Positions 17,935 through 35,592 of a stretch of DNA of 64,000 nt are shown piece after piece. The notes beneath the pieces were generated by a model. It was not told where the DNA came from. It worked only from the letters and a program-made list of their open reading frames with translations, and ran no database searches. This DNA is from an uncultured Pseudomonadota bacterium. Its GTDB lineage: Bacteria; Myxococcota_A; Polyangia; Fen-1088. Position 1 is the stretch's first letter. Every line of letters begins with the position of its first letter. Location of the stretch: contig CAVTSM010000003.1 in assembly GCA_963737345.1 (NCBI GenBank), positions 1,369,616 through 1,433,615 of the forward strand. Reading direction: 5' to 3'. Both the position numbers and the translations under genes were made by a program.

Positions 17935-19059
17935 CTAAGGCAGCGAAAACCGCTTGAAGAACGGCCAGGCGTTGTCTGGGACCAAGTAGTTGTCGGGGTT
18001 GGTCGCGTAGAAGAAGTTGTGATTTCCACGCGGCCGACAGTCAACGACCTCGGTTCCCCCGGCGCAACCCGGGTGGGTCTTGCACACGCCACTGGTGACG
18101 ACAGGCGTGTTCGGGCAGCTGTCGTTCGCGAGCCACTCGCTGATGTCCGCGTCGGCGGTGTCGATGGTGACCGTCGTGTCGTTCAATCCACGAATTGCCA
18201 AGACCGGGACCGGCCGGACCGGACTGCACGGAAGGGCACTGACCCGTCCACAGACCGGCGCCACCGCGGCGAAGATGTCGGCGGCCTCGCAAGCCAACCT
18301 GTACGTCATTCCGCCACCGTTCGAGTGCCCGCTCACATAGACACGCTTGCTGTCGATACAAAGCTCCGCGGTAGACTTCTGCACCATCGCGCGGAAGAAG
18401 CCCACGTCGTCCACCAGATTGGTGGTGCTGCTGCCAGAATTCCAGGCCTTATCAATACCGTCGGGATCGATGAGGACGAACCCTTCCTTGTCGGCCATCT
18501 TGTCCCATTTGCTGCGCTGCAATTGTTCCGCCGCCCACGAGGAATGCCCGTGGACGTCAAACACGAGCGCCATTGGTTTGGTGCCGTCGTAGCCGGGGGG
18601 AACGTGCAAGAGGTAGCTCCGCATCGTTCCGCCAGACTGAATCATGACCGTCGTCGTTCCGCTGGCGTGCGAGCGTGCCGGGGTACACGCGGCAAAGGAG
18701 CCACCGCTCCCCGCCGTCGTGGTCCCGCCCGCGCCGGCGACGCCTGCGTTACCGCCATTGCCGGCCGTAGCGGGACCGCCGCCGGCGGTTCCGCCAGCAC
18801 CACCGGTGGCAGCGCCACCCGTCGCGCTGTTGCCACCCGTCGCGCTGCCGGCACCCATCGCGCTGCCGCCGCCGCTCGCGCTGCTGCCGCCGGTCGCTGG
18901 GGCGCCGCCGGTGCTTGTCTCGGGCGAACCGCCCGATCCGCTGGTGCCACCGGAATCATGGGAGCCACCGGAGCCGCCGCCTCCGTCATTTGATGTCGAA
19001 CATCCCACCGCGCCGATCAGGGCCGTGGCCGCGATCAGAGTCAACGTCGCTTTGGCCAT
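17935..19059 (-). CDS. lipoprotein esterase of the PHB-depolymerase/feruloyl-esterase (alpha/beta hydrolase) type
   Basis: Lipobox LIGAVGCS, then a long Gly/Ser/Thr/Ala linker. LLHVPPGYDG...PMALVFDVHG... and the nucleophile elbow VSGHSNGG. Confidence 0.75.
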   Translation of the reverse strand: MAKATLTLIAATALIGAVGCSTSNDGGGGSGGSHDSGGTSGSGGSPETSTGGAPATGGSSASGGGSAMGAGSATGGNSATGGAATGGAGGTAGGGPATAGNGGNAGVAGAGGTTTAGSGGSFAACTPARSHASGTTTVMIQSGGTMRSYLLHVPPGYDGTKPMALVFDVHGHSSWAAEQLQRSKWDKMADKEGFVLIDPDGIDKAWNSGSSTTNLVDDVGFFRAMVQKSTAELCIDSKRVYVSGHSNGGGMTYRLACEAADIFAAVAPVCGRVSALPCSPVRPVPVLAIRGLNDTTVTIDTADADISEWLANDSCPNTPVVTSGVCKTHPGCAGGTEVVDCRPRGNHNFFYATNPDNYLVPDNAWPFFKRFSLP

Positions 19060-19237
19060 GGTGCCGCATCATACCCCTCCCCGCGCGACTGTCCGAGCAC
19101 GACAGCACCGTCCCCGGGGCTGGTGGGAATTCATCGGAGGGCGATCCGTCGTTGCCAATCCACCCGCTCATCGATGTCGGTCGCGCTCGGGTTCACCGGC
19201 GGTCTCAGCGGCAGTCGCCTCTGCCGAACGCTGACGG

Positions 19238-19615
19238 CTACTGCGGCTTGGCGTACTGCTCAGCGCTCATGACCTCGATGCAGGCAAACGGCTCTTTGCC
19301 GTCGACCCACGCGTCGTGGCCAGGCGGGATGGTGTACGAATCGCCGGGGCCGATGGTCTTCTTCGAGCCATCTTTGCCGACTACCGTGAGCCGACCCGAT
19401 ATCGCGTAACCCACGTGCGAGTTCTGACAGGATTCGGTGTGAACCACGGGCTTGATGCATTCCGACCAGCGCCAGCCCGGCTGAAAACTGAAGCGGCCCA
19501 GCGTGTAGCCGTCTAGCCGCACGACCTCGACACGCGTCTTGTCTGGCGTGCGGACCTCATCGGGCTGATCATGGGATTTCACCTCGAACTTCGTGACGCT
19601 CACGGGAGTAGCCAT
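19238..19615 (-). CDS. cupin domain protein
   Basis: AAGGAGG lies upstream of ATG 19613-19615. Contains ...HVGYAISGRLTVVGKDGSKKTIGPGDSYTIPPGHDAW. Confidence 0.75.
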   Translation of the reverse strand: MATPVSVTKFEVKSHDQPDEVRTPDKTRVEVVRLDGYTLGRFSFQPGWRWSECIKPVVHTESCQNSHVGYAISGRLTVVGKDGSKKTIGPGDSYTIPPGHDAWVDGKEPFACIEVMSAEQYAKPQ

Positions 19616-19913
19616 GGAAACCTCCTTGTCGATGTGCACCGCGACTGCGGTGTCTGCGAAGAGTACGCCCAAGCCTGCCTATGGTTACGCAGGTGTAACC
19701 ACCGCGCTGGTTCCGGCCTGTCCGTTCTGGATGACCGCACACTGAATCAGGCAGGTGCTTAATGCCGGATCAGTGCACGGAAAGCCGTTCGGATTGGAAG
19801 CCGTTCAGCCGGTCTATTGTCATCCCCTGGATGGTGGCCTTTCTGGCCGCCTAACCTCCCCGAGCGATGCCGGCGCCGGATACTGCTCGAGCTCGTTTGG
19901 ACTGTCGCTGCAA

Positions 19914-21971
19914 TTACCAGAGTTGGCAGAGGTCGGTCCTGCCGGTGGGCAGTGCGATTGCGGGAGCGGGTCCGGGGCAGCGGAATGCCTCCGCGAACTC
20001 GGGGACGTTCACGAGCGTTCCGTTGACACGAAACCGGCCTGGCGAGTGCGGATCGGTCATCACGAGCTCGCTCAGGTATTCGGGCCGGTCGTTCTCGCAG
20101 TAGAGCTGGGCGAACGACAGAAAGAACTGCTGGCGACTGTCGTACCCATCGCGTGAAGGCTCGTTGGGGTGCGCCGCGCCGAGTGCATCCAGCGCAAGGC
20201 GAACCCCGCCCAGATCGGCCGTGTTCTCGCCGAGCGTGAGCCGCCCATTGAGCTCCAACCCCGCGAGAGGCTGGTACCCAGCGAACTGATCCACCAGGCA
20301 CTGCGCGCGCGTCTGAAACCCAGCGGCCGTGTCGGGTGTCCACCAGTCGCGCAGGCGCCCCATTCCGTCGAGCGCGCGGCCACTGTCGTCGAACCCATGC
20401 GTGATCTCGTGCCCCATGACGGTACCGATGCCCCCGTAGTTCGACGCCGGCGAGTTGCCGGTCTTGAAGAACGGGAGCTGCAGGATCCCGGCCGGTATCT
20501 GCAGGCCGTTCGTCTGCAGGTAGCTGGCGTTCACCGTGATTGGCGCCATGTTCCAGGCGTGGCGATCGTACGGCTGGCCGAGCAACGCGATGCTCTGGCT
20601 ATACCCGAAGCTCCGGAGAGCGTTGTGATTCGCGAGGTAAGAGCCCGGATCGAAGGTGAGGCCGTCGTAGGCAGGCCACGCGTCCGGATAGGCGACCAGC
20701 TCGACGAGGTTGTCGAGCTTGGAAAGGGCCTCGGCGCGCGTCGAGTCGTCGAGCCAGCTCGCATCCATCAGGTGACGCGCCATCGACGCGCGTATCTCGC
20801 CGAGCAGCGCGGTCGCCTCGCTTCGAACCGCCGGCAACACGTACCGGCTGACGTAACGCTGCGACACCACCATACCGAGCGCGCCCAAGGTGGCATTGAG
20901 GCAGGTCCAATCGCGCGACGGAGCGCTCTCTACCCCGGTGAAGTCCTTCGCCCAGAACGCGAAGTCCGTGTCCAGAACCTGCTGATCCATCCACGGCGCC
21001 GTGTCCTGCACCAGCTGCCATTCGGCGTACGACTTCAGAGCCGCGATCGGCGTGGCGCTCCAAAGCGCGTCCAGCATCTTGAAGTAGGCGGGGTCTGCGA
21101 CGACGACTCTGGTGACCTCGCCCAGGCCGAGCGCCTGGAAATATCCCTCCCAGGGGAAGCTGGGCGCGAGCGCCTCGAGATCGCTCAGGGACATCGGGTT
21201 GTAGAGCGCGCGGCGATCGCGCAACTGGTCCGGCGCGCGGGCTGCCGTACCGAGCGCGGTCTCGACAGCCATCACCGCCGTGGGGTCTATGGGAGCCGGG
21301 GTCGCATAGAAGGCCGAGAGGTCCGCGATGTGCCGCTGGTAATCGGCGCGCATATCGGCGCGCGTCGGGTCCAGGTAGTCGTCCCGCTCGGGTAGCTCGA
21401 GGCCGCCCTGGCCCAGATGGATCGCCCATTGCGCGGGCATGCCCTCGTCGAAGCTGAAGCCCAGCGAGAACAAGGTGCCCGAGCCGAGGAGGCGTTGTCC
21501 GGCCAACGCCGTCGCGAGGTCGGCCAGCGACGTTGCTGATGCGATGGACTTCATCATCTTCTCGACGAGGGCGCGCGAGCCCATCTGCGTCGGGGCAACC
21601 AAGCAGCTCGCGTAGTAGGGTCCAATCATCCCGGGATTGGCATCGCCCGCGCCGCCTTTGCCAGCGGCTTCGTCTCGGATGATGCCCTGAAGCTTCGGCA
21701 CCATCGCGTAGAAGGCGTCGTCGAAGCGCCGTCGGTAGGCGCCGTCGGGCTGCAGCGGATTCGCGGCCAGCCACTTGCCGCAGGCATATTGGTAGAAGTC
21801 GTGGCAGGGGTCCGCGCCGGTGTCGATCGACATGAAGTCGATCCCGCTCGCCGGCGCCGGCGCCGGCGCCGGGGACGATGACGAGCAGGCGAAGGAGGGG
21901 AGCAGCGCGACGAAGGCGGCTGCTCGCGCTCGCGCGCCGACCTGGACATTCCGGCTCCGTTGCGCAGTCAC
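19914..21971 (-). CDS. pepO: M13 family zinc metallopeptidase (PepO/neprilysin-like) lipoprotein
   Basis: VMGHEITHGFDDSGR (HExxH), TVNASY, LGENTADLGG. Lipobox LLPSFACS. Confidence 0.9.
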   Translation of the reverse strand: MTAQRSRNVQVGARARAAAFVALLPSFACSSSSPAPAPAPASGIDFMSIDTGADPCHDFYQYACGKWLAANPLQPDGAYRRRFDDAFYAMVPKLQGIIRDEAAGKGGAGDANPGMIGPYYASCLVAPTQMGSRALVEKMMKSIASATSLADLATALAGQRLLGSGTLFSLGFSFDEGMPAQWAIHLGQGGLELPERDDYLDPTRADMRADYQRHIADLSAFYATPAPIDPTAVMAVETALGTAARAPDQLRDRRALYNPMSLSDLEALAPSFPWEGYFQALGLGEVTRVVVADPAYFKMLDALWSATPIAALKSYAEWQLVQDTAPWMDQQVLDTDFAFWAKDFTGVESAPSRDWTCLNATLGALGMVVSQRYVSRYVLPAVRSEATALLGEIRASMARHLMDASWLDDSTRAEALSKLDNLVELVAYPDAWPAYDGLTFDPGSYLANHNALRSFGYSQSIALLGQPYDRHAWNMAPITVNASYLQTNGLQIPAGILQLPFFKTGNSPASNYGGIGTVMGHEITHGFDDSGRALDGMGRLRDWWTPDTAAGFQTRAQCLVDQFAGYQPLAGLELNGRLTLGENTADLGGVRLALDALGAAHPNEPSRDGYDSRQQFFLSFAQLYCENDRPEYLSELVMTDPHSPGRFRVNGTLVNVPEFAEAFRCPGPAPAIALPTGRTDLCQLW

Positions 21972-22059
21972 GGGGGCATGGTATCAGCGCGCACGCCAGA
22001 GCGCTCGGCATCGAGGCGAGCCGCTCGGCATCTGGGCGGCCTCGGGGAATGTTCCGACG

Positions 22060-22397
22060 GCGCCGCACCTGCTGGTGTCTCCGCCGCCCGGGGCCCTTGG
22101 GGCCGCCGCCCTCCTTTAGGGGTTCGTGCTCGACCGTGATGGTCGTGCGGGCCGGCGGAGATCAGACGCCCCTGCTGAACGCCTCGGTGGACGCCTCCGG
22201 ATCAGGAACCGAACGGACTGGACGCCAGATGCGTTCGCGAATACGCCGGCGTCGGCGACCAAATCTACGTTGATGCCGGGTTCACGAAGGGCAGTGCGCT
22301 CGAGCGAGTCGCCGAGAAGTCGTGTACGCCGGGTGAGTTCGTCGTTCGGTTCGACTCCGAGCGCAATCCGCAGAGTCTCGCACGCACGAAGCACTGA
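22060..22397 (+). pseudogene. decayed copy of the exported Cys-protein family (paralogue of 30506..31060)
   Basis: Positions 22197-22377 align without gaps to 30662-30842, with about 22 mismatches in 181 nt by hand. The segment translates to PDQEPNGLDARCVREYAGVGDQIYVDAGFTKGSALERVAEKSCTPGEFVVRFDSERNPQS. Upstream homology (LLNASVDA vs ILRAAIKA) is in another frame (extra C near 22195), with an in-frame TAG at 22117-22119. A premature stop at 22395-22397 removes the C-terminal ~75 aa. Confidence 0.6.
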
Positions 22398-22427
22398 CCA
22401 CCGTAGCGGCGAGCCGGAAGGTCGCAG

Positions 22428-24041
22428 TCACGCAGCCGCCCGGCCGACCCGGGCCAGTCTTTCCACGTCGGCGAGATACTCCGAGTAGCTCATGCGGAGA
22501 TCATAGGAGGTCTTGCCGGACAACTCGATGACCCGGGTGGCCAGCGACTCCACGAACTGCACGTCGTGGCAGGCGAAGATCATCGAGGCGTCACTCTTCA
22601 AGAGGCCATTGTTGAGCGCCGTGATCGATTCGAGATCGAGATGGTTGGTGGGCTGATTCAGCAGCAGGGTGTTCGGGTTCTTCAGCATCAGCTGGGAGAG
22701 CATGCAACGCACCCGTTCGCCTCCCGAAAGGACCTCGACCTTCTTGTGAACCTCGTCGGAGGTGAAGAGCATGCGACCGAGAAACGAGCGGATGGACGTC
22801 TCGTCCTTGGTGTCGGGCGCGTACTGGCGCAGCCACTCGAGGACGCTCTTGTCAGTGACGAAGTAGGTGTTGTTGTCCTTGGGAAAGTAGGCGACCTGAG
22901 TCGAGCGTCCCCAGGTGACGGTGCCGGCCTCGGGCTTGGATTCTCCGGCCAGGACCTCGAGGAGGGACGAAACCGCCCGGTCGTCGCCGACGAGCGCGAC
23001 GCGCTCGCCACGGCCGATCGAGAAGGTCAACCCGTCGAACAGCACCTCACCGCCGACGGTCTTGCGTAGGCCCTCCACGTTCACGACCTCCTTGCCGAGG
23101 GCGCGCTCCGCGTTGAACTGAATGAACGGGTACTTGCGAGACGACGGCCGGATGTCGTCCAGCGTGATCTTGTCGAGCAGCTTCTTTCGCGAGGAGGCCT
23201 GTCTCGATTTGGAGGCGTTGGCGCTGAACCGCCTGATGAACTCCTTCAGATCCTCGATCTGTTCAGACTTCTTCTTGTTCGAAGTCGATCGCTGCGTGAG
23301 CGCCATCTGGCTGGTCTCGTACCAGAAGGTGTAGTTCCCGGAGTAGAGCGTCACCTTGCCGAAATCGATGTCGGCGATGTGCGTACAGACTTTGTCCAGG
23401 AAATGCCGGTCGTGGGAGACGACCACCACGGTGTTCGGGAAGTCGAGCAGGAACTCCTCGAGCCAGAGGATCGAATCGACGTCCAGGTGGTTCGTGGGCT
23501 CGTCGAGGAGGAGGATGTCCGGATTGCCGAAAAGCGCCTGCGCCATGAGGACGCGGACCTTTTCGCTATCAGCCAGGTCCTTCATGAGCAAAGAGTGCTT
23601 GGCCGCCGGGACCCCCAGCTCACTCAGCAGCTTGGCAGCCTCGGCTTCAGCGTCCCAGCCGTTCAGGTCGACGAACGCAGCCTCCAGCTCACCGGCCCGC
23701 ACACCGTCGGCCTCACTGAAGTCGGCCTTCGCATACAGCGCGTCCTTCTCCACCATCAGCGCGTGCAGGACCTTGTGGCCCATGATGACGGCCGTCAGGG
23801 CCGGCACCTCGTTGAAGGCGAAGTGATCCTGGGAAAGCATGCTGAGCCGCTTGTTCGGCTCGATGCTCACCGAGCCGGAGGTCGACTGGATCTTGCCTGC
23901 CAGGCACTTCAGGAATGTCGACTTTCCGGCGCCGTTGGCGCCGATGAGCCCATAGCAGTTGCCGGGCGTGAACTTGACGTCCACGTCTTCGAACAAGGTC
24001 TGGCTGCCGAACGCGACGGAGAGGTTCTGAACGGTGATCAT
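22428..24041 (-). CDS. ABC-F family ATPase (two ABC domains, no TM domain)
   Basis: Two Walker A / signature sets (GANGAGKST ... LSGGE...), 537 aa, a YbiT/EttA-like ABC-F architecture. Confidence 0.9.
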   Translation of the reverse strand: MITVQNLSVAFGSQTLFEDVDVKFTPGNCYGLIGANGAGKSTFLKCLAGKIQSTSGSVSIEPNKRLSMLSQDHFAFNEVPALTAVIMGHKVLHALMVEKDALYAKADFSEADGVRAGELEAAFVDLNGWDAEAEAAKLLSELGVPAAKHSLLMKDLADSEKVRVLMAQALFGNPDILLLDEPTNHLDVDSILWLEEFLLDFPNTVVVVSHDRHFLDKVCTHIADIDFGKVTLYSGNYTFWYETSQMALTQRSTSNKKKSEQIEDLKEFIRRFSANASKSRQASSRKKLLDKITLDDIRPSSRKYPFIQFNAERALGKEVVNVEGLRKTVGGEVLFDGLTFSIGRGERVALVGDDRAVSSLLEVLAGESKPEAGTVTWGRSTQVAYFPKDNNTYFVTDKSVLEWLRQYAPDTKDETSIRSFLGRMLFTSDEVHKKVEVLSGGERVRCMLSQLMLKNPNTLLLNQPTNHLDLESITALNNGLLKSDASMIFACHDVQFVESLATRVIELSGKTSYDLRMSYSEYLADVERLARVGRAAA

Positions 24042-24482
24042 GCTGGACCGGGCGTCTTACGCCAGCGATGCGCGGGGTTCAAGCGGAACCAGGAGCGGCC
24101 TGGTCGTCGGTCGTCGAATGGCCGGAGATTTCATCCGTAAGTAAAGTGAGCAGAAGAACTTCGAGACGATGATGACCGGCGTCAACGCGTCCCTTGGTGG
24201 CCGTGATAAGCCCTGATCGGGTCCGCGCGTCGGCGCATTCGGCCGCTGCCCATCCGCGCGGTACCCTAGCGTCGTGGGTCGGATGATTGACATCTATGGC
24301 GGGAAAGACCCCCGTGACCTTCCGCGGTACTCGACCGCGGAAGCCGCGCACTATGCGTGCGGCGGGCCTGCTTCGTTTCCTGCTTCGACATGTGGCACCT
24401 TTTCTACGCTCGTTTCTCTGAGCGTGGGTGTCCACCAGGCCGGGTCAACTCCACCCGGCGGCACAAGAGTTGAACGAACGTG

Positions 24483-24914
24483 TCACGGAGTCTTCTGCGG
24501 AATCGTCTTGACTACCCACCGGTCCGCCTTGCGCTTGACGACTCCCTTCACCGGGCCGCATCCGGACGCCCGAGGAGCCCGTATGCGCCCCTTCGCGGAA
24601 TCGTCACGCCAGTTCGAATACAGCAGCTGCGCCCAACACTTTCTGGCTCCATGGCGCTCACGCTCGAACCCAAACTGGATGACGTACGTTGTTGGAGCCT
24701 TCGGGGGGCTTCGCCCGATTTGCACCACCCACCCATTCCCCTCGCACGTAACCGTTTGCACGGGCATCGGATCGAATCCGATCGCTTCAGCGTGCGTGAC
24801 TCCGCCGGCCGAGGCTGTCTCCTGGACACACTTCCTTTCCAGAGCCGTGTCGTCATCCGTCAATGGCCCGAGTATGCGCGTCGCGGTCTCGAGGACCATC
24901 GGACAGTAGTCCAC
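24483..24914 (-). CDS. exported Cys-protein family member (module copy 2, partner gene); start unresolved
   Basis: Shares DYC(P/E)M, (R/K)CV(Q/R)E and (T/S)C..G..VV motifs with 30506..31060. The frame stays open upstream of the first GTG (24912-24914) and encodes ...EKTVWILITLAIGLPGGGKTARTTN, which is signal-like. No ATG/GTG/TTG lies there, and that part overlaps the 3' end of 24953..25528. Confidence 0.5.
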   Translation of the reverse strand: MDYCPMVLETATRILGPLTDDDTALERKCVQETASAGGVTHAEAIGFDPMPVQTVTCEGNGWVVQIGRSPPKAPTTYVIQFGFERERHGARKCWAQLLYSNWRDDSAKGRIRAPRASGCGPVKGVVKRKADRWVVKTIPQKTP

Positions 24915-24952
24915 GTTGGTCGTACGCGCGGTCTTCCCCCCTCCCGGCAGGC

Positions 24953-25528
24953 CTATCGCGAGTGTGATGAGAATCCAGACCGTCTTTTCCCGCCGAGTGG
25001 GAACATCTTCTGCGGCACGATCGTGAAGTCGAGAAGCTTCATCGTCCGCATGTCGATTTCGACGTCATCGAAGATGCGACCGCGAAGAGTGCCGACCGTC
25101 ATTCCGGGAACCAGCGTCGCAATCAGGCCACCGATCGCAGAGCTGTTGCATCCCAGGATGTCAAAGCGCTGGACGCCGGAGTTCTTCAGGGCGTGGGCCA
25201 GTTGGGGCGCCGCGATTCTGTGAAGCGGGGCCAGCGTAACACCGTCGGACAGCGCGTGCCCGTAATAGACGAGGCGAGAGTATCGACGTGTCGCTAATGC
25301 AGCGCTGATGGTCCTCAGGTCGGGGACGAAATCGGCCTGCGCCAGGTCCGGCACCTCCGAACCGAAAGATTGCTGGAGGGATCGGCGGAACAGTCGTTCA
25401 AAGTTGGCGCGCGTTTCCCCCTTGAATTCCTTCGGATCAAGCTGCCACGTCTTGTGGAGATCGCGATGTGTAGCGCTGAACAGCTTGATCTTGTTGGGCG
25501 GTACGCCATACGCGACGAGCGTGGCCAT
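24953..25528 (-). CDS. small cytoplasmic protein with conserved YYGHA / ILGC motifs (module copy 2)
   Basis: 191 aa. Paralogue of 29960..30505: AYGVPP / IYGVPP; NFERLFRRSL / SFERALRTAL; RLVYYGHALSDG / QVVYYGHADQNA; RFDILGCNSS / HVDILGCKSV. No signal peptide. Confidence 0.6.
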   Translation of the reverse strand: MATLVAYGVPPNKIKLFSATHRDLHKTWQLDPKEFKGETRANFERLFRRSLQQSFGSEVPDLAQADFVPDLRTISAALATRRYSRLVYYGHALSDGVTLAPLHRIAAPQLAHALKNSGVQRFDILGCNSSAIGGLIATLVPGMTVGTLRGRIFDDVEIDMRTMKLLDFTIVPQKMFPLGGKRRSGFSSHSR

Positions 25529-25535
25529 GACCTAT

Positions 25536-25703
25536 TTACCGTCCCCGATCCGGGCCAACCCCGGCCGGAATCTGTGCGATGATGATCGCCCCGGGGTACC
25601 GGCCCTGGTCGACGAACATGCAGTACGAGCCGGCGCACCCTCTCAGGCGAACCAACTCGAGCAGATCGCCGAGGTCGTAAGGGTTCATCACCATGTGACT
25701 CAT
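25536..25703 (-). CDS. possible 55-aa ORF upstream of module copy 2
   Basis: Below the track length cut-off. My translation: MSHMVMNPYDLGDLLELVRLRGCAGSYCMFVDQGRYPGAIIIAQIPAGVGPDRGR. TAA lies 7 nt before the ATG of 24953..25528. No clear RBS and no counterpart upstream of copy 1. Confidence 0.25.
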   Translation of the reverse strand: MSHMVMNPYDLGDLLELVRLRGCAGSYCMFVDQGRYPGAIIIAQIPAGVGPDRGR

Positions 25704-25886
25704 GGTGGACTTCGGCTAAGCACGCTAAATGGTTGCGGCCCCTCTGGCTACATCCATCTGGGGGACCGCCATCGCCCAAGTGCTGTATCGTCGGGCAGGA
25801 TCCGTGTGACCGAAGAGGCGCTGCACGCGCTCTTCACGCGTCGCCGGCCGGACGGATGACCCGCGTCCGGCCCCCCCGGGGGGGGG

Positions 25887-25924
25887 GGTGTTATACGCTG
25901 TGATAAGCTTTGGCGTATAACACC
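25887..25924. promoter_or_regulatory. perfect 12-bp inverted repeat GGTGTTATACGC-N14-GCGTATAACACC abutting the ATG of the nucleotidyltransferase gene
   Basis: Arms at 25887-25898 and 25913-25924, with the ATG at 25925. Preceded by a C7 G11 homopolymer pair (25871-25888). Confidence 0.5.
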
Positions 25925-26959
25925 ATGGCCGCGCCCGACTTCGTCAAGCTCCCGCTCCTCGCGCAGACGGCGTACGCCCGCCTCCTCGACCTCCTCCTGA
26001 CGACCGAGATTGGGGATCCACTTGCCGGCGACTCCCTGGTTTCCAAGTCGATCCGCGGTCGCAGGTACTGGTACGCCCAGCGGCAAGAGGATGGCAGGAA
26101 GGTTCAGAACTACCTCGGGCCGGAGACTCCCGAGATCCTGGCGCTGCTCGAACGCTGGCGACGCGGAAAGACCGAGGCGTCCACGCGGGCAGAGCTGATT
26201 GCGATGGCGCGTGCCGGCGGTGCGCACGCGATCGGCGCCGCGGAGGCCAGCGTCATCGAACGGCTGGCTCCGGTCTTTCGAGTGGGCGGCGTACTCGTCG
26301 GCTCACATGCGTTCGTGGTTCTTGGCAACATGCTTGGCGTGCGGTGGCAAGAGGCTATCGTGCGAACCGAAGATGTCGACATCGCTCACGATCACACGAT
26401 CGCCGTAGCTCTGGCTCGCGGCGGCCCACGCGCGAATATCAAAGACGCGCTGGGCAATCCTATCCCGCGATTCTCGGCCCTCGACCCTGACGATCCTGCG
26501 ACCACGTTTCGCGTCCGGGGCACCGAGGTAGAGGTGGAGATCCTCACCCCGTTGGTTGGACGCGAGCGAGCGAGGACAATTTCGATCCCGACGTTGGGGA
26601 CCTCAGCGACGCCTTTGCGGTTCCTGGACTACCTCATCGAAGAGACACAACCCGGCGCCATCCTGGGCGGCACGGGCGCCCTGGTCAACGTCCCCCGACC
26701 CGGCCGCTTTGCGTTGCACAAGCTCATTGTGGCGGCGCGACGTGGAACCCGCACCGTCAGCATCACCAAGGCGGCCAAAGACCGTGCCCAATCCAGCGCG
26801 CTTCTGCAGGTCCTTCTCACGGAGTCGCCAGGGGAAATCACGCTCGCCTGGAAATCGCTCGCGCGCCGCGGACGTGCCTGGACCCAGGCTGCCTTAAGCT
26901 CGCTCGCCACCCTCCCCCCGACCATTACGACGGCGATCGAACAGTTGGGAGTCCGTTGA
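25925..26959 (+). CDS. nucleotidyltransferase-fold protein (GSU2403-like / AbiEii-like architecture)
   Basis: N-terminal ...SKSIRGRRYWYAQRQEDGRKVQNYLGPE... followed by a Pol-beta-type motif VGSHAF...(x17)...TEDVDIAHD (GS...DxD). The track ORF starts at TTG 25910, but ATG 25925 is more likely. Confidence 0.65.
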   Translation: MAAPDFVKLPLLAQTAYARLLDLLLTTEIGDPLAGDSLVSKSIRGRRYWYAQRQEDGRKVQNYLGPETPEILALLERWRRGKTEASTRAELIAMARAGGAHAIGAAEASVIERLAPVFRVGGVLVGSHAFVVLGNMLGVRWQEAIVRTEDVDIAHDHTIAVALARGGPRANIKDALGNPIPRFSALDPDDPATTFRVRGTEVEVEILTPLVGRERARTISIPTLGTSATPLRFLDYLIEETQPGAILGGTGALVNVPRPGRFALHKLIVAARRGTRTVSITKAAKDRAQSSALLQVLLTESPGEITLAWKSLARRGRAWTQAALSSLATLPPTITTAIEQLGVR

Positions 26960-27047
26960 ACCGCGATCGTCGCCCGCTACGTCAACACACGTCGCTTGCC
27001 CCGGGCCCTCCGAGCCCGCTGCAGTTTCTGAGGCCGCGAAGCGGTCG

Positions 27048-27368
27048 TTGTGGAACTCCAAACCGGTCTTGAGGGCCTACAACGGCGTTCTTCTCGTCGA
27101 GTTGAAGCACATCGTCCCCGACTTTGACCATCCGACCAAGGCGAAGGACGGCACCGACATTCCGGGCGCCAAGAACGAAATCGTGCGCGTCTTCGTCGAG
27201 TGCGCCGACGCCGTTGGGGGCGACGCCAAGAGTGGCAGCGATCAGGTCTTGGCGGGTCTTGGCTTCCCTGTATTGAGATTCACCTCAGAGGCGATCTTCT
27301 CCGATCCGATTGCCTCGGCTCTCGAGGTCTTCTGGTACCTAGAGCGCGGCGATCACAGTTCCGGGTAG
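27048..27368 (+). CDS. DUF559/Vsr-like endonuclease-fold remnant (degenerate)
   Basis: TTG start. VPDFD...VRVFVECAD...DQVLAGLGFPVLRFTSEAIFSDP resembles the PD-(D/E)xK core and C-terminal ...VLRF... of DUF559 proteins, but catalytic positions are not all present. Confidence 0.35.
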   Translation: MWNSKPVLRAYNGVLLVELKHIVPDFDHPTKAKDGTDIPGAKNEIVRVFVECADAVGGDAKSGSDQVLAGLGFPVLRFTSEAIFSDPIASALEVFWYLERGDHSSG

Positions 27369-27463
27369 AGCAAGTCCCCGCTCACGCTATTCTCGTTCCT
27401 TCGGCGAGCCATGAAGGAAGAGGTCTTGACGCTGCCTCACCCGAATCTCCGGGCCGAAGTCTG

Positions 27464-27958
27464 TCAGGGCATTTTCTTGCCTCGCTCGGCCCGCGCGCTG
27501 ACCACGCGAGCGAGGTCGAGGAGGACTTCTTGCACCTCACCGGCACGCGCTCTCAATTCGTCGGGGCTCATCTGCAAGAAGCCCGCGAGGTTCGAGTTGA
27601 TCTGGCGAAGCAACGCTTCGTCCTTTTGGAGAGCCCCCATGCGACGCCGGGCAGCCTTGACTTGATTGGCATGGACCGATCCCGCGTAGAGCGCTTTCGC
27701 TCCCTCGGCGGTCCACTCCTTCAGCACCGGCAGAGCGTCTCGGCAGATCGCCCCGTTCTGGTAAACGGATACATGCGCGGCCGCCTCGATGATGGGGCGG
27801 TCCGCTCGAAGGTCGTGAATGCTTATGCGCTTTCGATCCTTCAGGAACCGCCTGATCTCGTATTCCGGCCAACAGAATCGCTCACCGACGTTGCCGACAC
27901 TGCGCCCAGCATTCGCCGCATCTTGACGGCGAAGCTCCTCCGCCTCGTGTTGAGCGTC
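27464..27958 (-). pseudogene. open reading frame without a start codon, abutting the truncated transposase (gene remnant, unknown family)
   Basis: Track ORF 27464..27727 begins at a GTG. The same frame is open up to ~27958 (…RFCWPEYEIRRFLKDRKRISIHDL…VLKEWTAEGAKALYAG…) with no ATG/GTG/TTG. Confidence 0.3.
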
Positions 27959-27959
27959 C

Positions 27960-28825
27960 CTATCGGCATGCCGGGGTTCCAGGGTAATCGCCGCTGCCCA
28001 TCATCTTCCACCACTGACGGATCGAAGCGACGGCGAATTGGGGAGTGTCGTGGTCGCGGCCGACGTTCACCCATGCCTCATTGCGGGCCATGTCGTAGAC
28101 GCCGTACGGGATCGCCTTGCCGATCGCATCGCCCGGGAAATCGTGCACCAGTGCCTCTTCGGGCGTGGCCCGCGGTTGCCATTCCCGCCCGGCGTTTTTG
28201 AAATCACCGACCAGTTCCTTCTTTTTCGTGTCGACGGAGATCACCGGCTGCTTCCGGCGCAGGAACGACGTGGTGGTCGCGTTGATGTGCTCGAACTGTT
28301 CGTTGCGGTCTGGATGCGAGTCCCCTTCGCGGGTCTTGCGCACCGATTGCAGGCTGTATCCGAGTTCGTGGAGCAGACGTCCGACCGTCGTGGAGCTCAC
28401 ACGCCATCCGTCGTTCGCCAGCGTCGACGCGAGCTTCGCTCTGCTCTTGCAGGTCCATCGAAGCGGCGACATGGGGTCGCCACGGGTGAGCGGATCGACC
28501 AGCTGCTCGAGCGCCTGTTTCACTCCCGGGTTCGTCTTCTCGATGCCCGGGCGTCCCGCACCGACTCGGCGCACCCGTGTCGTGGCCTCGACTCCGCCTT
28601 CGATCTCGCGGCGGCCGCTCCGGATCGTTACCCGCGAAATCCCTGTCGCCGCAGAAACAACGGAGTCACCTCCGTACCCGATGGATCTCGACTCCGCCGC
28701 CGCCCACAGACGACGCGCACGCTCGTTGAGAACCGGCGCGACCACCGCGTACTTCGCCACGATGGCCGCTTCCAACTCTTCGTCTCGGCTCACAACCGCA
28801 GGAGATCACGCTTCCTTGCGATTGA
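27960..28825 (-). mobile_element. truncated ISAzo13-family IS; the transposase retains only the N-terminal 277 aa
   Basis: ORF 27960..28793: ...LNERARRLWAAAESRSIGYGG...PLRWTCKS...HPDRNEQFEHIN...PVISVDTKKKELVGDFKNAGREW...AIPYGVYD...IRQWWKMMG..YPG, then a stop. The canonical continuation (LLITADGGGSN... DDE core) is missing. Confidence 0.8.
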
Positions 28826-29293
28826 ATAGTTAATTTACGCGCGCCGCCTAAGTGTCGCCGCCCGGATTGTGGCCACCGAGAGGAGGCGGCCGACGGAGAC
28901 CTGCGTCGCTGCCCCAAGTGCAACTTCAAACTCTGGCCGATCGGCCAGGTGCCGCCCATCCGGTTCCACGACACGCGCCACACCACTGCGTCGCTGCTGA
29001 TGATGTTCGGCGCCAGCCCGATCGCGGTGCAGCGGATCCTCCGCCACTCCGACGTCCGCACCACGACCGACGTCTACAGCCACCTCGCTCCTGACTACCT
29101 GCGGGCGGAGATCAACAAGCTGTCGTTCCGGCCGAAGCCGCAGCCGGAGACCCTCACCCTGGCCCTCTCCTGCGGCGCGGCGCAGCGGGAGAGGGGATCA
29201 AAGGGCACCGGAGGCGGATGGATTTACTTCACCGGTACTTCAGAGCGAGAAAGAGGCGGGTTCGGCGGTTCCCCCCCCCCTCCGAATCCGTGA
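28826..29293 (+). pseudogene. tyrosine recombinase (integrase) C-terminal fragment
   Basis: The frame opens just after a stop at 28823-28825. It encodes a CxxC...CxxC insert and then IRFHDTRHTTASLLMMFGASPIAVQRILRHSDVRTTTDVYSHL (box II with the catalytic Tyr). The N-terminal two thirds are absent. Ends 20 nt before the att repeat. Contains a C10 tract at 29271-29280. Confidence 0.8.
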
Positions 29294-29312
29294 ACCATTC
29301 CGTCGAGTTAAC

Positions 29313-29358
29313 TCGGTCGGGGCGAGAGGATTCGAACCTCCGACATTCTGCTCCCAAA
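29313..29358 (-). repeat. 46-bp direct repeat = 3' half of tRNA-Pro (anticodon loop to 3' end + 4 nt); internal att site
   Basis: Identical to 34728-34773: TCGGTCGGGGCGAGAGGATTCGAACCTCCGACATTCTGCTCCCAAA. The flanking bases differ on both sides. Confidence 0.9.
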
Positions 29359-29384
29359 TTTACGAGGACGGCGTTCCAGACGGT

Positions 29385-29837
29385 ATGAAGGCGTCGCAAC
29401 CATCGGAGATGATTACAGAGTCGGATCCGCCCGGAGTCCAGCCGTCCCAGCCGGTAGCAGGAAGTACCAAGGATTTTGTTACCCGGTTGCTACCCGAATC
29501 TGGAAAGGCGTGGCCGCGGGCGCGGGTGCAGCCCGCCGAGGTCCACCCTGGGTGGCCCAACAACCCCGGGACGGCGGCGCCTGGCCCGACCACCCCCACC
29601 CCGAACGACCTCGGGGTTCTGTACGGCGGACGTAACCGGCTGCTCACGGTCAGGGAGGTCGCGGCCCAGCTCGGCGTGTGCACCGCGACCGTGTACCGCC
29701 TCTGCGAAATCGGCGAACTGCCGCATGTCCGGATTTCCGATGCGATCCGCGTGAGGCCCGCGGACCTGGAGGCGCTCGTGGCGTCCACCCTGACCGTCCC
29801 CGACAGGAAGCGTCCGCATCGACGGAAGGCCCCATGA
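29385..29837 (+). CDS. excisionase-family/MerR-like HTH DNA-binding protein (only the C-terminal ~60 aa are recognisable)
   Basis: LLTVREVAAQLGVCTATVYRLCEIGELPHVRISDAIRVRPADLEALV. The true start is uncertain (alternative GTG at 29526). Confidence 0.55.
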   Translation: MKASQPSEMITESDPPGVQPSQPVAGSTKDFVTRLLPESGKAWPRARVQPAEVHPGWPNNPGTAAPGPTTPTPNDLGVLYGGRNRLLTVREVAAQLGVCTATVYRLCEIGELPHVRISDAIRVRPADLEALVASTLTVPDRKRPHRRKAP

Positions 29838-29959
29838 GTCCCCCTGCGAATCGCCAAATTCATGTAGCAAGAGCGCCCGCAACTATCTAGCCTGGCCGCC
29901 GATAGTTCACCATGGCAGCGGGGTGTGCGAATGGCGATGTCTCGGAGGAGGGCTGAAAC

Positions 29960-30505
29960 GTGAGCGACGTGTCAGTGCTTTGCATCTATGGCGTGCCTCC
30001 GACAATGAGGCTGAAAACTGCTGGCGGACAGAGCACCGGCCAGACGTTCACCCTGACGAGCACGAACAAGGGGTCTTTCGAGCGGGCGCTCCGAACTGCA
30101 CTCGACGCCTTCGTCGGCAGCGACGCCAGCATCATGGGCGCTCGGTTCGCCTTCGTGCGCAACATCTCCGAGATTTCTACGGCGATTCGCTCCGGCGCCT
30201 ACACACAGGTCGTCTACTACGGTCACGCCGATCAAAATGCGAATGCGCTGATCACCTCCCATGGAGTGAGGATCACCCCGGCACAGCTGGCGTCGGCTCT
30301 GCAAGGGACTAGTGTTGCGCACGTCGACATCTTGGGCTGCAAGAGCGTCAGTTTCGCGGGGGAGCTTGCGACACTCGCACCAAAGTTGCGGGTGGGCTAC
30401 CTAACAGCGAAGAGATTCGACAACATCGAGGTCAATCTCCACACCCAGCAGGTCATCGATGTCGCGATCGATCGTCAGCCGCTGCTTCACTTCGGGCCGA
30501 AGTAG
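29960..30505 (+). CDS. small cytoplasmic protein with conserved YYGHA / ILGC motifs (module copy 1)
   Basis: GTG start with GGAGGAGGG 8 nt upstream. 181 aa, no signal peptide. His89 in VVYYGHAD and Cys127 in VDILGCKS, each following a hydrophobic strand-like run. Confidence 0.65.
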   Translation: MSDVSVLCIYGVPPTMRLKTAGGQSTGQTFTLTSTNKGSFERALRTALDAFVGSDASIMGARFAFVRNISEISTAIRSGAYTQVVYYGHADQNANALITSHGVRITPAQLASALQGTSVAHVDILGCKSVSFAGELATLAPKLRVGYLTAKRFDNIEVNLHTQQVIDVAIDRQPLLHFGPK

Positions 30506-31060
30506 ATGGGGGCGGTTCGCCAGGTTTGGTGCGTGCTTGGGGTCGCTGTCGCGCTCACCTCCTGCGCCCACCGTCATGGACGGGAGCGGCGCTCCGGGAA
30601 TCCGGTGACGTCGGACTATTGCGAGATGTCGGCGACGATTCTGCGGGCTGCGATCAAGGCTCCGGATCAGGAACCGAACGGACTCGACGCCCGGTGCGTT
30701 CGCGAATACGCCGGGGTTGGCGACCAGGTTTACGTTGATGCCCGGTTCACGAAGGGCGGTATGCTGGAGAGGGTTGCTGACAAGTCGTGTACGACGGGTG
30801 AGTTCGTGGTTCGGTTCGACTCGGAGCGCAATCCCCAGAGTCCCGCACCGGGAGTCATCTTCTTGAGCGTCGATGAACCAACGCCGACCGGCCGGCCTTT
30901 TTTCATCACCGTCGAGGAATCGCGATGGGCCAAGCGGCCCTCCAACGTCCTTGCGATGCCACCTTGCGATCCGGCCTTTGGCATCCTGAATGGCCGTACT
31001 GAAAGCACCGGCTGGACAGCCAAGGTTGTTCCGCCGCCTCGCGGACCTGACGACCTGTAG
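30506..31060 (+). CDS. lipoprotein of unknown function (module copy 1, partner gene)
   Basis: The ATG directly abuts the upstream TAG (30503-30505). Lipobox GVAVALTSC. Further conserved Cys in DYCEM, ARCVRE, KSCTTG, PPCDP. Confidence 0.65.
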   Translation: MGAVRQVWCVLGVAVALTSCAHRHGRERRSGNPVTSDYCEMSATILRAAIKAPDQEPNGLDARCVREYAGVGDQVYVDARFTKGGMLERVADKSCTTGEFVVRFDSERNPQSPAPGVIFLSVDEPTPTGRPFFITVEESRWAKRPSNVLAMPPCDPAFGILNGRTESTGWTAKVVPPPRGPDDL

Positions 31061-31067
31061 AGGTTGT

Positions 31068-32768
31068 TCACCGGGCCAGTCGAACACCGATTCCGACTGG
31101 AGGAGGGATGACTTCGCTGAAGCCGGAGCGGTCTTCGGAAATCCATGCCACGTCCGAACGATCGAGATCCCGGTTGAACTCGTAGTGCACCGCGAGCGGC
31201 CGGCCAGCCTCGTCGACTTTCAGGACGGCTGCTCTGAGAGTCGCGGTTTCAACGACATCACCAACCCTGAACGGACTGGTTCGAACGATTCCGTTCCGTC
31301 CAAGTGGAAAAAGCGGTGTGCTCTCCTGGACGACGTCGAGCGAGGTCGCGGATGTGCGGATGGCCGCGGTCTGTTCGAATGTGTGGCTCAGGACCAGCCA
31401 GTGCTTTGGCGCGTCCTCGCGTAAGACGAAGGGCGCAGAGAGGGCTGTCAACCCCTGAGTGGCACGGACGACCAAGGCCGTGTCGGCTGCGCGAGCGCGC
31501 TGCGGCACGGTCGCAAACCGCGCGAGGCTTTGCCTCGCTTCCTCGACGTTATCGACCGAGATTCGGCGCGTCTGGAATGGAGCGACGACGAGATGGATGA
31601 GTGTCGCCAGCGCCGCCACGCCGAGCACCAGCGAAGCGCGAAACGGCCGGCGAATCTGGCGCGTCCCCTGCTCAACCAGCACACCGACTACGCCGCTTAT
31701 GCCGAGCGCGGCGATGCCAAGAACGCGAAGTGCAGGCTCGGTCGCCGCGAGCGGGAACAGCGCGATGACGGAGCCGCAGGCGAGCCATGAGATGGGTAGC
31801 GGCAAGACCCCAGACGTTTGTCGACGGGCCGTCCAGACAGTCCGTATCACCAGAACACCGGCACCGAAGATCAACGCCGCTCCAACGGCTTCGGATGCGG
31901 GCAACCGCGCAGTCACGCCAGGGCCGAGCCAGGCCGACGCCAGCAGGGCAGAAACCGTCCCGGGAAGCGCATGCAAGAAGGTCCCAAGATCGGTTGTCGG
32001 ATCGCGATAGAAGCCTGTTCCTGCGGTGCCGTACCCGAGCGCGCCAGAGGTAGAGCAACAGCGGTCCCATTGCCGGCAGCGCACCGACGAGACGGCGCCG
32101 TACGGTCTCTCCGCGATGGCACAACTCGAAGGCGATCAGGTACCCAATCAGGCACAAGGCGTATTCGCCTGTCAGAGCGGCTGCACCGAACGCGCCGGCG
32201 GTCGCCAGTCCCAGGCCGCGACCCCGCTCAGCCCGCCAGCGCACGTAGAGCGCGAGTGCCAACGCGCCGAAGGTCACACTCACGAGGATGCTGCGGTTCG
32301 CCAGCCACACGACCGGTATGGCGAGAGTCGGAGAGACGGCGAACACAACCGTGGCGATCCATGCCGCGCGCTTTCCAACGACGGTCCGGTAGAGAACGTG
32401 AGCGGCGAGCACCGCTGCCGCCCACCACAGGAACGACAGTACGTGCGGCCCAAAGGGCTCATTGCCGAACAGCCGATGGTCGACCCAGATGAGCAGGCTG
32501 GGCAGCGGCCGCAGGAATCGGATCGTCAGGTTAGGCTCGGACCACCAGGGGATCACGCCGCGATCCAGAAGTGCTGACCGATTGTCGTCCGCGATGAGAT
32601 CGTAGAGGTGAAAGGCCCCCGTGGTGGCGTCAGCGTCCCCTCGATCATCGCCCGCTGCCCGAAATCGTCCATGCCGAACGTTGCATGCATGGCAGCACGG
32701 TTCAGGGCTCCCCCTGCCGCCAGGGTGCCGACAAGCACCACGCCCGCGATCCACGACCGACGCGTCAT
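31068..32768 (-). pseudogene. polytopic membrane protein interrupted by two frameshifts
   Basis: Three overlapping track ORFs (32553..32768, 31672..32829, 31068..32084) join into one sensible protein. The joins are ...TLTPPRG/AFHLYDLIADD... (at a G5 run near 32617-32621) and ...GPLLLYL/..GALGYGTAGTGFY... (near 32045-32060). Confidence 0.55.
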
Positions 32769-32777
32769 GTTCCGCCG

Positions 32778-33920: not shown

Positions 33921-34083
33921 AGCGGGCGCGATGATAAGCAGTTGCGCCCCTCAGTCGCAATCGGAGCGAGGATAACCTGGCCCAGCACGGTTTGGCCCAC
34001 CTGACAGTTGCGGCCAAGCAAGCGCGAAAGGTCGAGCTTCACGTCAGTAGCCTTTCGACGGCACGTCACCGGCTTCAGTGCAG

Positions 34084-34618: not shown

Positions 34619-34727
34619 CTCCACAAGTGTAGCTCGGCTTGTCACCCGGCTGCTACGGGACGCTGCGAGCCGCTCAGCTTCGTCGACCCGGCGTGTGGCG
34701 GTTGGAAAGGATCCGCGCGGACTTAAG

Positions 34728-34773
34728 TCGGTCGGGGCGAGAGGATTCGAACCTCCGACATTCTGCTCCCAAA
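34728..34773 (-). repeat. 46-bp att repeat copy within and just beyond the 3' half of the intact tRNA-Pro
   Basis: Identical to 29313-29358. Confidence 0.9.
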
Positions 34774-34805: not shown

Positions 34806-34834
34806 TCGGGGCAGGAATATACACCGGCGCGGGG

Positions 34835-35515: not shown

Positions 35516-35592
35516 TTGAAGCCTCCTGCCTCTACATACGCGGCAGAAGCCCGCCGGTCACGGTCGCCTCGCCCCTGCCCCGCCTCAGCCGC

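Follow-up and report, generated by a model that had tools for sequence, protein, structure and literature searches.

The second, inverted copy of a two-gene module in the 64,000-nucleotide stretch of DNA analysed here (the window) is probably a decaying remnant of a horizontally acquired cassette. The cassette comprises gene 1 and a partner gene, which most likely encode a polymorphic toxin and its exported immunity protein that have so far escaped annotation. The copy 1 pair looks intact, whereas copy 2 has most likely ceased to work as a pair. The features of copy 2 are:

24483..24986, minus strand: ancestral 167-codon open reading frame (ORF) of the copy 2 partner, an exported Cys-rich protein and candidate immunity protein, start codon lost
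24930..24983, minus strand: hydrophobic leader of the copy 2 partner, from the sequence
24953..25528, minus strand: gene 1 of copy 2, 191 aa, a stand-alone protein with a putative caspase/CHAT-like His-Cys domain
24983..24986, minus strand: former ATGA stop/start overlap, now AAGA, by comparison with homologous loci
25536..25703, minus strand: 55-aa ORF, 3' stub of a class I SAM methyltransferase gene (last 53 codons), by homology to relatives

Loss of the partner start codon and decay of copy 2

Gene 1 and the partner overlap by an ATGA in all homologous loci examined (L001-L014), the overlap reading AAA TGA in L001-L009 and L012-L014, CCA TGA in L010 and AGA TGA in L011. AAGA is found in the window only. 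A single T>A at 24985 (minus strand) converts the gene 1 TGA to AGA and the partner ATG to AAG (24984..24986), thus leaving the partner without a usable start. A codon scan of the partner frame from the in-frame stop at 25067 to the GTG at 24914 found no ATG, GTG or TTG and only the near-cognates ATT, ATC, ATA and CTG. This confirms the observation of the earlier note that a hydrophobic segment, read in the -1 frame across the 3' end of gene 1, lies 5' of the first GTG with no such codon available. The GTG at 24914 is the first canonical partner start and yields a leaderless ORF of 143 aa. Reinitiation at this GTG after gene 1 ends at 24953 would give a leaderless cytoplasmic partner.

Orthologous loci were inspected for an ATG at the equivalent position, and it is present. 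The intact partner orthologues (P0024-P0026, L013/L014) are 167-168 aa long, 78-90% identical, share the N-terminus MTAWILVALAIGLAGGGK and have M at the codon equivalent to the lost start; the hydrophobic segment is coding and conserved among homologues. The data do not support a designed feature; the start-less state is a one-base lesion (ATG>AAG) in a gene with relaxed constraint. The same 191-aa gene 1 product, 55-aa ORF and junction occur in the Logan assembly of run ERR11718634, and this recurrence in an independent assembly indicates that the start-less state is not a glitch of one assembler.

The lack of a lipobox Cys, also reported as distinguishing copy 2, is real but is not peculiar to it. 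Both the copy 2 partner and its intact orthologues read ...LAIGLAGGGK, with no Cys and no match to the lipobox pattern [LVI][ASTVI][GAS]C. A lipobox is present in the copy 1 partner and in most other family members (ALTSC, LAVGC, LALGC). As the intact orthologues also lack the Cys, its absence is a clade feature and no defect of copy 2.

Substitutions were counted by per-gene parsimony, not with a full codon model, and the counts are small: the window branch carries 9 nonsynonymous and 3 synonymous changes in the partner versus 5 and 24 in gene 1 (Fisher p 0.0008). The intact L013 partner has 7 nonsynonymous and 21 synonymous changes, from which the window partner differs (p 0.005). Two of the partner changes, Y>H at residue 65 and F>C at residue 117, fall at near-invariant columns (at least 90% conserved among 31 family members). 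In L001, the closest relative, the partner leader carries a +1 frameshift that arose independently. When the mature part is pooled over the window and L001, the counts are 6 nonsynonymous and 5 synonymous, and some residual constraint may act on the GTG-initiated 143-aa ORF, the site numbers being small. The window, L001 and L013 branch differently in gene 1 and in the partner, and counts were therefore kept per gene; this mosaic suggests recombination. Judged from the lost start and the relaxed constraint, the copy 2 partner is evolving as a pseudogene.

Gene 1 of copy 2 is also altered. Its orthologues have 183 aa versus 191 aa in the window, where loss of the stop codon has added eight disordered residues (pLDDT is 86 for the predicted structure and below 50 for residues 183-191), and a window-specific 6-nt in-frame deletion near 25331 has removed YL from ADYLF. 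The strong purifying signature of gene 1 may largely predate these lesions, and is thus no proof that gene 1 is still functional.

The 55-aa ORF, described in the earlier note as an extra element ending 7 nt before gene 1, exists at that position but is no extra gene, and the data do not support it as a designed feature. It is 85% identical to residues 212-264 of the L013 methyltransferase, and the full methyltransferase of close relatives has 259-264 aa and lies 5' of gene 1. Homology to the relatives breaks at ~25697, and the ATG AGT at the 5' end of the ORF is junction sequence. Contrary to the outcome that would have counted against the earlier observations, the hydrophobic segment and the 55-aa ORF are both conserved, as parts of larger ancestral genes. 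The operon order in close relatives is a beta-propeller-like protein, the SAM methyltransferase, gene 1 and the partner. The methyltransferase lies 5' of gene 1 only in the L001/L012/L013 clade; it was considered as a conserved module component and rejected, as it does not precede gene 1 in L002-L006. Scanning 24300..26000 for promoter and terminator consensus sequences gave no sites, a result of little weight, as this phylum may use other types of promoter.

It is quite unlikely that the partner is still made and functional, through a near-cognate start (ATT 24974, ATC 24968) or reinitiation at GTG 24914. The 167-codon frame does remain open, the 143-aa GTG ORF is intact in both the window and L001 despite their different leader lesions, the GTG is confined to the window/L001/L013 subclade (the L012 partner has GTC there), and the mature-region counts are not clearly neutral. 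Against this, no Shine-Dalgarno-like sequence lies at a useful distance, the GGGAGGGGGG run ending 21 nt 5' of the GTG, and a leaderless product would keep four conserved cysteines in the cytoplasm. The Y>H and F>C changes and a substitution pattern significantly unlike that of the intact orthologue also argue against a functional product, as does deletion of the 5' part of the operon, presumably including its promoter. A sequencing or assembly error concealing a true ATGA and an intact partner would involve a difference of one base, but is highly improbable in view of the identical 191-aa product and junction in the independent ERR11718634 assembly, the eight further window-specific amino-acid changes in the partner and the truncated operon; substitution errors are, moreover, rarer than indels. 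We give almost no credence to programmed -1 frameshifting at GGGAAAAG to yield a gene 1-partner fusion. The partner frame is indeed -1 to gene 1 and the shift point falls in an A-rich run, but the zero-frame codons GGG AAA AGA provide no X XXY YYZ heptamer and the four-A run is too short for transcriptional slippage. The stop/start overlap in all relatives further indicates that such a fusion is not conserved.

Island setting and origin of the two copies

The decaying cassette and copy 1 both lie within eroded integrative islands at tRNA-Pro. The relevant features are:

22191..22385, plus strand: third relic, 62 codons from the interior of a partner gene of the copy 1 type, by sequence identity
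27960..28793, minus strand: truncated ISAzo13-type DDE transposase gene (PF07592, profile positions 1-180 of 308)
28949..29293, plus strand: tyrosine integrase C-terminal stub beside the att repeat (PF00589, profile positions 126-169 of 172)
29305..29358, no strand: direct repeat of the tRNA-Pro 3' half, an att-type island boundary, 96% identical to 34720..34773
29385..29837, plus strand: HTH_17 (excisionase-type) gene, just inside the att repeat and 5' of copy 1, by profile match
29960..30505, plus strand: gene 1 of copy 1, 181 aa, apparently intact
30506..31060, plus strand: partner of copy 1, a lipoprotein of 184 aa with lipobox ALTSC, apparently intact
34730..34805, minus strand: tRNA-Pro gene (Rfam), with the second repeat (34720..34773) inside and adjoining it

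The hallmarks of a tRNA-targeted integrative island are found together here, namely a tRNA 3'-end repeat, an integrase stub and an HTH_17 gene, and the same repeat pair bounds the L001 island. Within the eroded island, the ISAzo13-type transposase stub separates copy 2 from the att repeat. GC3 is 0.73-0.79 for island genes versus 0.85-0.92 for backbone genes, and identity to L001 is 92-96% for the module versus 82-83% for the backbone. An Rfam scan of the whole window found only the tRNA-Pro.

The kinship of the two modules proposed from their shared motifs was borne out. The gene 1 copies can be aligned over their whole length (24953..25528, minus strand, versus 29960..30505, plus strand; 34% identity, E 2e-32), and the partner copies are related (24483..24992, minus strand, versus 30506..31060, plus strand; 21% identity, E 4e-6), with the latter alignment extending into the hydrophobic segment 5' of the GTG. 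The copy 1 partner has many orthologues of 180-186 aa. The earlier note had left the choice between an old duplication and an independently acquired variant: a second, diverged copy is supported, as is independent acquisition, because the two copies occupy different islands and are each closer to orthologues in other genomes than to one another, whereas a recent duplication is not. The third relic adds to the features listed previously. It is 88% identical at the nucleotide level to 30660..30848, has no start codon and is flanked by stop codons on both sides.

A probable caspase-like domain at the C-terminus of RHS/Tc toxins

Scans of gene 1, the partner and the 55-aa ORF against Pfam and NCBIfam gave no match. 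Neither window copy of gene 1 matches Pfam CHAT (PF12770) or Peptidase_C14 at E<=1, and searching the PDB sequences with a profile of gene 1 returned nothing below E 0.6; the distant family member P0091 has a sub-threshold CHAT match (20.0 bits versus a cut-off of 24). Fold comparison of the gene 1 model with the PDB ranked SAVED-CHAT best, followed by legumain, GPI transamidase, caspase-2 and CED-3, the top matches all belonging to clan CD. Similarity to the clan is moderate: the best match (8tl0) has a TM-score of 0.49 and E 3e-4, and the others E 0.03-0.1. The His of YYGHA and the Cys of ILGC (H91 and C127) are invariant among 20 aligned sequences, follow the His-then-Cys sequence order of the clan CD catalytic residues and are also aligned in the RHS versions described below. 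The partner model (pLDDT 83) found no comparable match in a Foldseek PDB search (best E 0.15, TM ~0.2), and its structure is thus uninformative on its role.

The gene 1 domain occurs at the extreme C-terminus of four RHS-repeat proteins (P0055, P0074, P0084 and P0089); SpvB and TcdB_midN domains are present as well in three of the four. In these proteins it is placed after the RHS core motif ...YDPxxxRFxxxDP...NPxxxxDPxG[FY], and hhalign relates gene 1 to the RHS C-terminal domain with 98.9% probability and E 2e-17, the His and Cys being aligned. The 220-aa product of a gene located 2 nt 3' of P0084 begins with a signal-like segment and is a partner-family member by both profile (E 3e-6) and BLASTP (1e-4). 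P0055 and P0074 also have abutting downstream genes, of 197 and 210 aa; the partner-family match is established for the P0084 neighbour. In L012 a second-type cassette is followed by a 3' stub of window-type gene 1 and an intact orphan partner, an arrangement of cassette displacement. The gene 1 family has a patchy distribution on islands and forms only 73 clusters (50% identity) in a set of 1.84 billion proteins, and most members are stand-alone proteins of ~185 aa, in which no recognisable secretion or trafficking domain was found. For polymorphic toxin systems, Zhang et al. 2012 (PMC3482391) report caspase-like domains that serve as the C-terminal toxin, as well as cassettes that stand alone. 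The likely caspase/CHAT-like fold, the RHS/Tc C-terminal position and the partner-family gene following one such protein together suggest the toxin/immunity reading.

An unlikely alternative is that the module is no toxin/immunity pair at all, gene 1 being a cytoplasmic caspase-like peptidase next to an unrelated exported protein (housekeeping or regulatory), or a 'releasing' peptidase domain. Such a role would fit the predominance of stand-alone members of ~185 aa with no secretion signal, the remark of Zhang et al. (PMC3482391) that the caspase-like domains of polymorphic toxins mostly act as releasing peptidases, and the purifying selection on gene 1 while its partner decays. It fits poorly with the four RHS-repeat proteins, where the domain comes last, behind the RHS core cleavage motif, which is the toxin position, and with the partner family following the domain in both stand-alone and RHS-fused architectures. 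The displacement in L012 with an orphan partner and the patchy, island-borne distribution likewise argue against it.

Read as a toxin and immunity pair, the module can be set beside known systems. It resembles Tox-Caspase polymorphic toxins (PMC3482391) in having a His...Cys alpha/beta domain at the very C-terminus of SpvB/TcdB/RHS proteins, a short gene in close linkage just downstream, and stand-alone cassettes whose displacement leaves orphan immunity genes. It differs in that gene 1 and the partner are matched by no existing Pfam or NCBIfam model, in that most gene 1 members are stand-alone with their own ATG and not silent cassettes, and in that the putative immunity protein is here an exported lipoprotein, a form of immunity protein listed for one family only, Imm65, in PMC3482391. 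CHAT/SAVED-CHAT (8tl0) and the clan CD peptidases (caspases, legumain, GPI transamidase, separase) provide the best structural matches of gene 1 and share with it the order of His then Cys, each following a beta-strand. The gene 1 domain is nevertheless much smaller (~180 aa), lacks a sensor domain, reaches a TM-score of just 0.49 at 12-15% sequence identity, and falls below the Pfam CHAT and Peptidase_C14 thresholds. Among interbacterial effectors that act on the envelope and have periplasmic immunity proteins, such as T6SS pairs of the Tae/Tsi type, an effector without a signal peptide is combined with an exported, often lipidated immunity protein encoded directly downstream. The module would follow the same effector/immunity logic, but no T6SS genes or PAAR/VgrG adaptors were seen beside it, and the gene 1 fold looks caspase-like, not amidase or NlpC/P60. 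Copy 2 is also comparable to degraded toxin-immunity modules in islands with respect to its truncated 5' context, lost start, relaxed selection, and integrase and IS stubs, except that the clearest decay here is in the immunity-like gene, whereas elsewhere the orphan immunity gene is more often retained.

Proposed history and significance

On this reading, the operon was carried on a tRNA-Pro integrative island, acquired horizontally and then eroded. A rearrangement deleted the operon as far as the last 53 codons of the methyltransferase, and the T>A change in the ATGA overlap abolished the partner ATG and gene 1 TGA together. The start-less partner has since gathered mostly amino-acid-changing substitutions, two of them at near-invariant residues, and gene 1 has gained its 8-residue disordered tail and 2-residue deletion. 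In its working form, gene 1 would be a small clan-CD (caspase/CHAT-like) cysteine peptidase domain and putative polymorphic-toxin effector. The partner would be its putative cognate immunity protein, translationally coupled and exported by means of a leader of lipoprotein or signal type, with disulfides among its four conserved cysteines likely to stabilise it. It would shield the cell envelope or periplasm, the presumed site of toxin action.

The start-less gene, the missing lipobox and the small ORF are accordingly ordinary debris of island decay, which clears up an apparent oddity: the copy 2 partner should be annotated as a pseudogene, not as a new gene or a case of non-canonical translation, and the 55-aa ORF as a gene fragment, not as a new gene. 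It is conceivable, if not probable, that selection still maintains the toxin gene after the death of the immunity gene in this genome; if so, this would point to a partner-independent use of the peptidase or to cross-protection by the copy 1 partner.

The analysis links two unannotated families, a compact caspase-like domain also found on RHS/Tc toxins and an exported Cys-rich partner whose fold is confidently predicted and has no PDB match. It is conceivable, although doubtful, that the gene 1/partner family constitutes an undescribed class of interbacterial weapon, in which a ~180-aa caspase-like envelope peptidase, delivered as RHS/Tc cargo or as an effector on its own, is countered by a lipoprotein rich in disulfides. 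Should the pair prove to be a true toxin and immunity system, the known polymorphic toxins of soil Myxococcota-like bacteria would be joined by a peptidase effector whose immunity protein is, unusually, a lipoprotein. Gene 1 and its partner would then also offer a small, tractable pair for identifying the envelope substrates of a minimal clan-CD peptidase in bacteria.

Start/stop junction and leader of copy 2

Features of the two modules:
24953..25528, minus strand, gene 1 of copy 2 (191 aa)
24483..24986, minus strand, ancestral extent of the copy 2 partner gene
25536..25703, minus strand, 55-aa ORF preceding copy 2
29960..30505, plus strand, gene 1 of copy 1
30506..31060, plus strand, lipoprotein partner of copy 1

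The copy 2 ORFs were found at the coordinates reported in an earlier note. The gene 1 products align over their full length (34% identity, E 2e-32). Partner region 24483..24992 aligns with the copy 1 lipoprotein at lower similarity (21% identity, E 4e-6), in an alignment that includes the hydrophobic segment encoded upstream of the first partner GTG. The partner frame lacks any ATG, GTG or TTG from the in-frame stop at 25067 to the GTG at 24914, as had been noticed. Run ERR11718634 was assembled independently by Logan, and the identical 191-aa product and the 55-aa ORF are called there.

A search with the gene 1 protein returned 23 relatives, the full-length ones all 183-193 aa with C-termini ...GGK or ...GPK; the window protein extends 8 residues past this point. 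We compared the relatives' DNA at the gene 1/partner junction (loci L001-L014). An ATG is present at the equivalent position in every locus, where it opens the partner and overlaps the gene 1 TGA (ATGA). The window reads GGGAAAAGACGG, while the nearest relatives L001, L013 and L014 read GGGAAATGAC[G/A]G. Hence, a single T>A at 24985 (minus strand) abolished two signals, converting the partner ATG to AAG and the gene 1 TGA to AGA. The AlphaFold model of window gene 1 has a pLDDT of 86.4, with precisely the read-through residues 183-191 scoring below 50.

Close partner orthologues (P0024, P0025 and P0026, with 90%, 86% and 78% identity respectively) are intact 167-168 aa proteins beginning MTAWILVALAIGLAGGGK. 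This N-terminus indicates that the ancestral partner gene spanned 24483..24986, and the hydrophobic segment is thus a genuine conserved leader. The leader indeed has no lipobox Cys, but this is a trait of the subclade rather than a lesion of copy 2; lipoboxes in copy 1 and other subclades read LAVGC, LALGC, LTSC and ALTSC.

Substitution pattern of the partner

Branch-unique substitutions per gene, with L001 and L013 as references:
Window gene 1: synonymous 24, nonsynonymous 5
Window partner: synonymous 3, nonsynonymous 9
L013 partner (intact): synonymous 21, nonsynonymous 7

The window partner differs both from window gene 1 (Fisher p 0.0008) and from the L013 partner (Fisher p 0.005), although the small counts limit the conclusion. 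Its changes include Y>H (motif ..G.xYAEA..) and F>C (..RKFW..), both in columns at least 90% conserved among 31 family members. Copy 2 gene 1 itself carries a window-specific 6-nt in-frame deletion, removing 'YL' from a conserved ADYLF stretch. In the closest relative, L001 (ENA ERZ25039475 contig_59601, 6549..6683 / 6622..7053; 92-96% nucleotide identity over the module), the ATGA overlap is kept. One additional G in the partner leader shifts the ATG ORF (44 aa) into a different frame from the mature part; either this gene was inactivated independently in L001, or the G is a homopolymer sequencing error.

The GTG-initiated 143-aa partner ORF might retain residual function, as the mature region displays 6 nonsynonymous and 5 synonymous changes when both lineages are summed. 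This is unlikely, given that the ORF lacks the leader, that a ribosome-binding site at a useful distance was not found and that it bears both changes at conserved residues.

The 55-aa ORF and the island setting

Gene 1 of L001, L012 and L013 is preceded, at a distance of 6-8 nt, by a gene for a class I SAM methyltransferase (259-264 aa). The 55-aa ORF, which terminates 7 nt before gene 1 in the window, matches methyltransferase residues 212-264 with 85% identity. The window and L001 are homologous in nucleotide sequence up to ~25697, where the match ends abruptly, leaving only ATG AGT at the ORF 5' end as junction sequence. The ORF is therefore conserved, but as the leftover 3' end of a truncated gene and not as an extra gene. 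The truncating deletion also took away the upstream part of the operon. A consensus scan saw no promoter-like site upstream of copy 2, which is weak evidence as promoters of this phylum may differ. The methyltransferase is absent next to gene 1 in L002-L006, and is thus no universal neighbour. The copy 2 clade operon starts with a 435-599-aa protein followed by the methyltransferase gene (L001 3896..5203; L012 1889..3688); this protein weakly resembles SBBP beta-propeller/LipL53-like lipoproteins (NCBIfam NF047494, E 9e-8, well short of the cut-off). A C7G11 homopolymer palindrome (plus-strand reading, 25871..25888) lies ~170 nt from the truncation point, just upstream of an NTP_transf_8 gene (25910..26959), and may mark a site prone to recombination or misassembly.

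Features of the island region:
34730..34805, minus strand, tRNA-Pro gene
22191..22385, plus strand, third module relic, comprising 62 codons from the interior of a partner gene of copy 1 type (88% identical to 30660..30848 at the nucleotide level)

The tRNA-Pro 3' half is directly repeated at 29305..29358 (96% identity, 5.4 kb apart; window 34720..34805). Copy 1 lies between tRNA and repeat, beside an HTH_17 excisionase-type gene; this island also holds an antitoxin-like gene and a Vgb-lyase-like propeller gene. An intact integrase is lacking, with only a stub outside the repeat (28949..29293). Left of the repeat follow this integrase C-terminal stub, a truncated ISAzo13-type transposase gene, the NTP_transf_8 gene and then the truncated copy 2 operon. 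L001 is syntenic with the window beyond the tRNA (msrPQ, msrA; 82-83% identity), and its copy-2-type module resides inside a 6.9-kb island with the same bounding repeat. Within 18000..40000, GC3 is 0.73-0.79 for island genes (both modules, NTP_transf_8, transposase and integrase stubs) and 0.85-0.92 for backbone genes (ABC-F, msr genes, M13 peptidase). These observations indicate the two copies were independently acquired on mobile elements, in separate island settings, and did not arise by local duplication. The relic, devoid of a start codon and flanked by stops on both sides, lies between the backbone M13 peptidase (19914..21971) and ABC-F (22428..24041) genes. Further diverged internal repeats (66-73% identity: 42227..42803 vs 46888..47503; 43286..43903 vs 48163..48780), and a third such pair (4913..5261 vs 6870..7218), are presumably paralogous genes unrelated to the module.

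We consider with high confidence that copy 2 is an island-borne cassette in decay. Its three defects are a point mutation in the start/stop overlap, a partner evolving as a pseudogene and a neighbouring-gene stub mimicking a small ORF.

Gene 1 domain and the partner as candidate immunity protein

Searches of Pfam, NCBIfam and PDB sequences gave no match for gene 1 or the partner. A complete HMMER run of the gene 1 profile against 1.84 billion cluster representatives yielded only 73 clusters, four of which are giant proteins with the domain at the extreme C-terminus. P0055 (3026 aa), P0074 and P0089 join SpvB, TcdB_midN, FG-GAP and RHS repeats, whereas P0084 contains RHS repeats only; in each, the RHS core motif ...DPxG[FY] precedes the domain. 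Profile comparison of gene 1 with the RHS-borne domain gave 98.9% probability (E 2e-17) and placed YYGHA and GC in register. P0074 and P0084 have long Gly/Ala-rich hydrophobic stretches between core motif and caspase-like domain, absent from stand-alone genes and possibly membrane-inserting segments. In the PDB, the gene 1 model is closest to the CHAT protease of SAVED-CHAT (E 3e-4, TM 0.49); legumain, GPI transamidase, caspase-2, CED-3 and separase rank next. The invariant order His91 then Cys127 agrees with these matches and, together with the RHS C-terminal position, suggests gene 1 is a compact clan-CD-like domain that occupies the place of the toxin in polymorphic toxins. This class was foreseen by Zhang et al. 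2012 (PMC3482391) under the name 'Tox-Caspase'.

The ATGA overlap predicts translational coupling of partner and gene 1 in every locus. In L015, the gene 2 nt downstream of P0084 encodes 220 aa with a signal-like N-terminus. This protein is a match to the profile of the partner (E 3e-6 in that one comparison; 1e-4 by BLASTP), with the same Cys pattern and C-terminal GCG..EG..K.GRWV motif. L012 4487..6090 contains the methyltransferase gene, then a second-type (L006-type) gene 1 and partner cassette. This is followed 3' by the final ~20 codons of a gene 1 of window type (..RTMKLLGFTIVPQKIVPIGGK*), an ATGA overlap and P0025, a partner of window type that is intact. The arrangement is the signature of cassette displacement. 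Coupling, the partner-family gene following P0084 and the L012 displacement make the partner a candidate cognate immunity protein, and the presence of a leader and of four conserved cysteines implies that it acts outside the cytoplasm. No PDB relative was found for its predicted fold (pLDDT 83). From domain architecture, gene linkage and fold, we infer that the module encodes a polymorphic toxin of caspase-like type together with its exported immunity protein, both from families without existing annotation.
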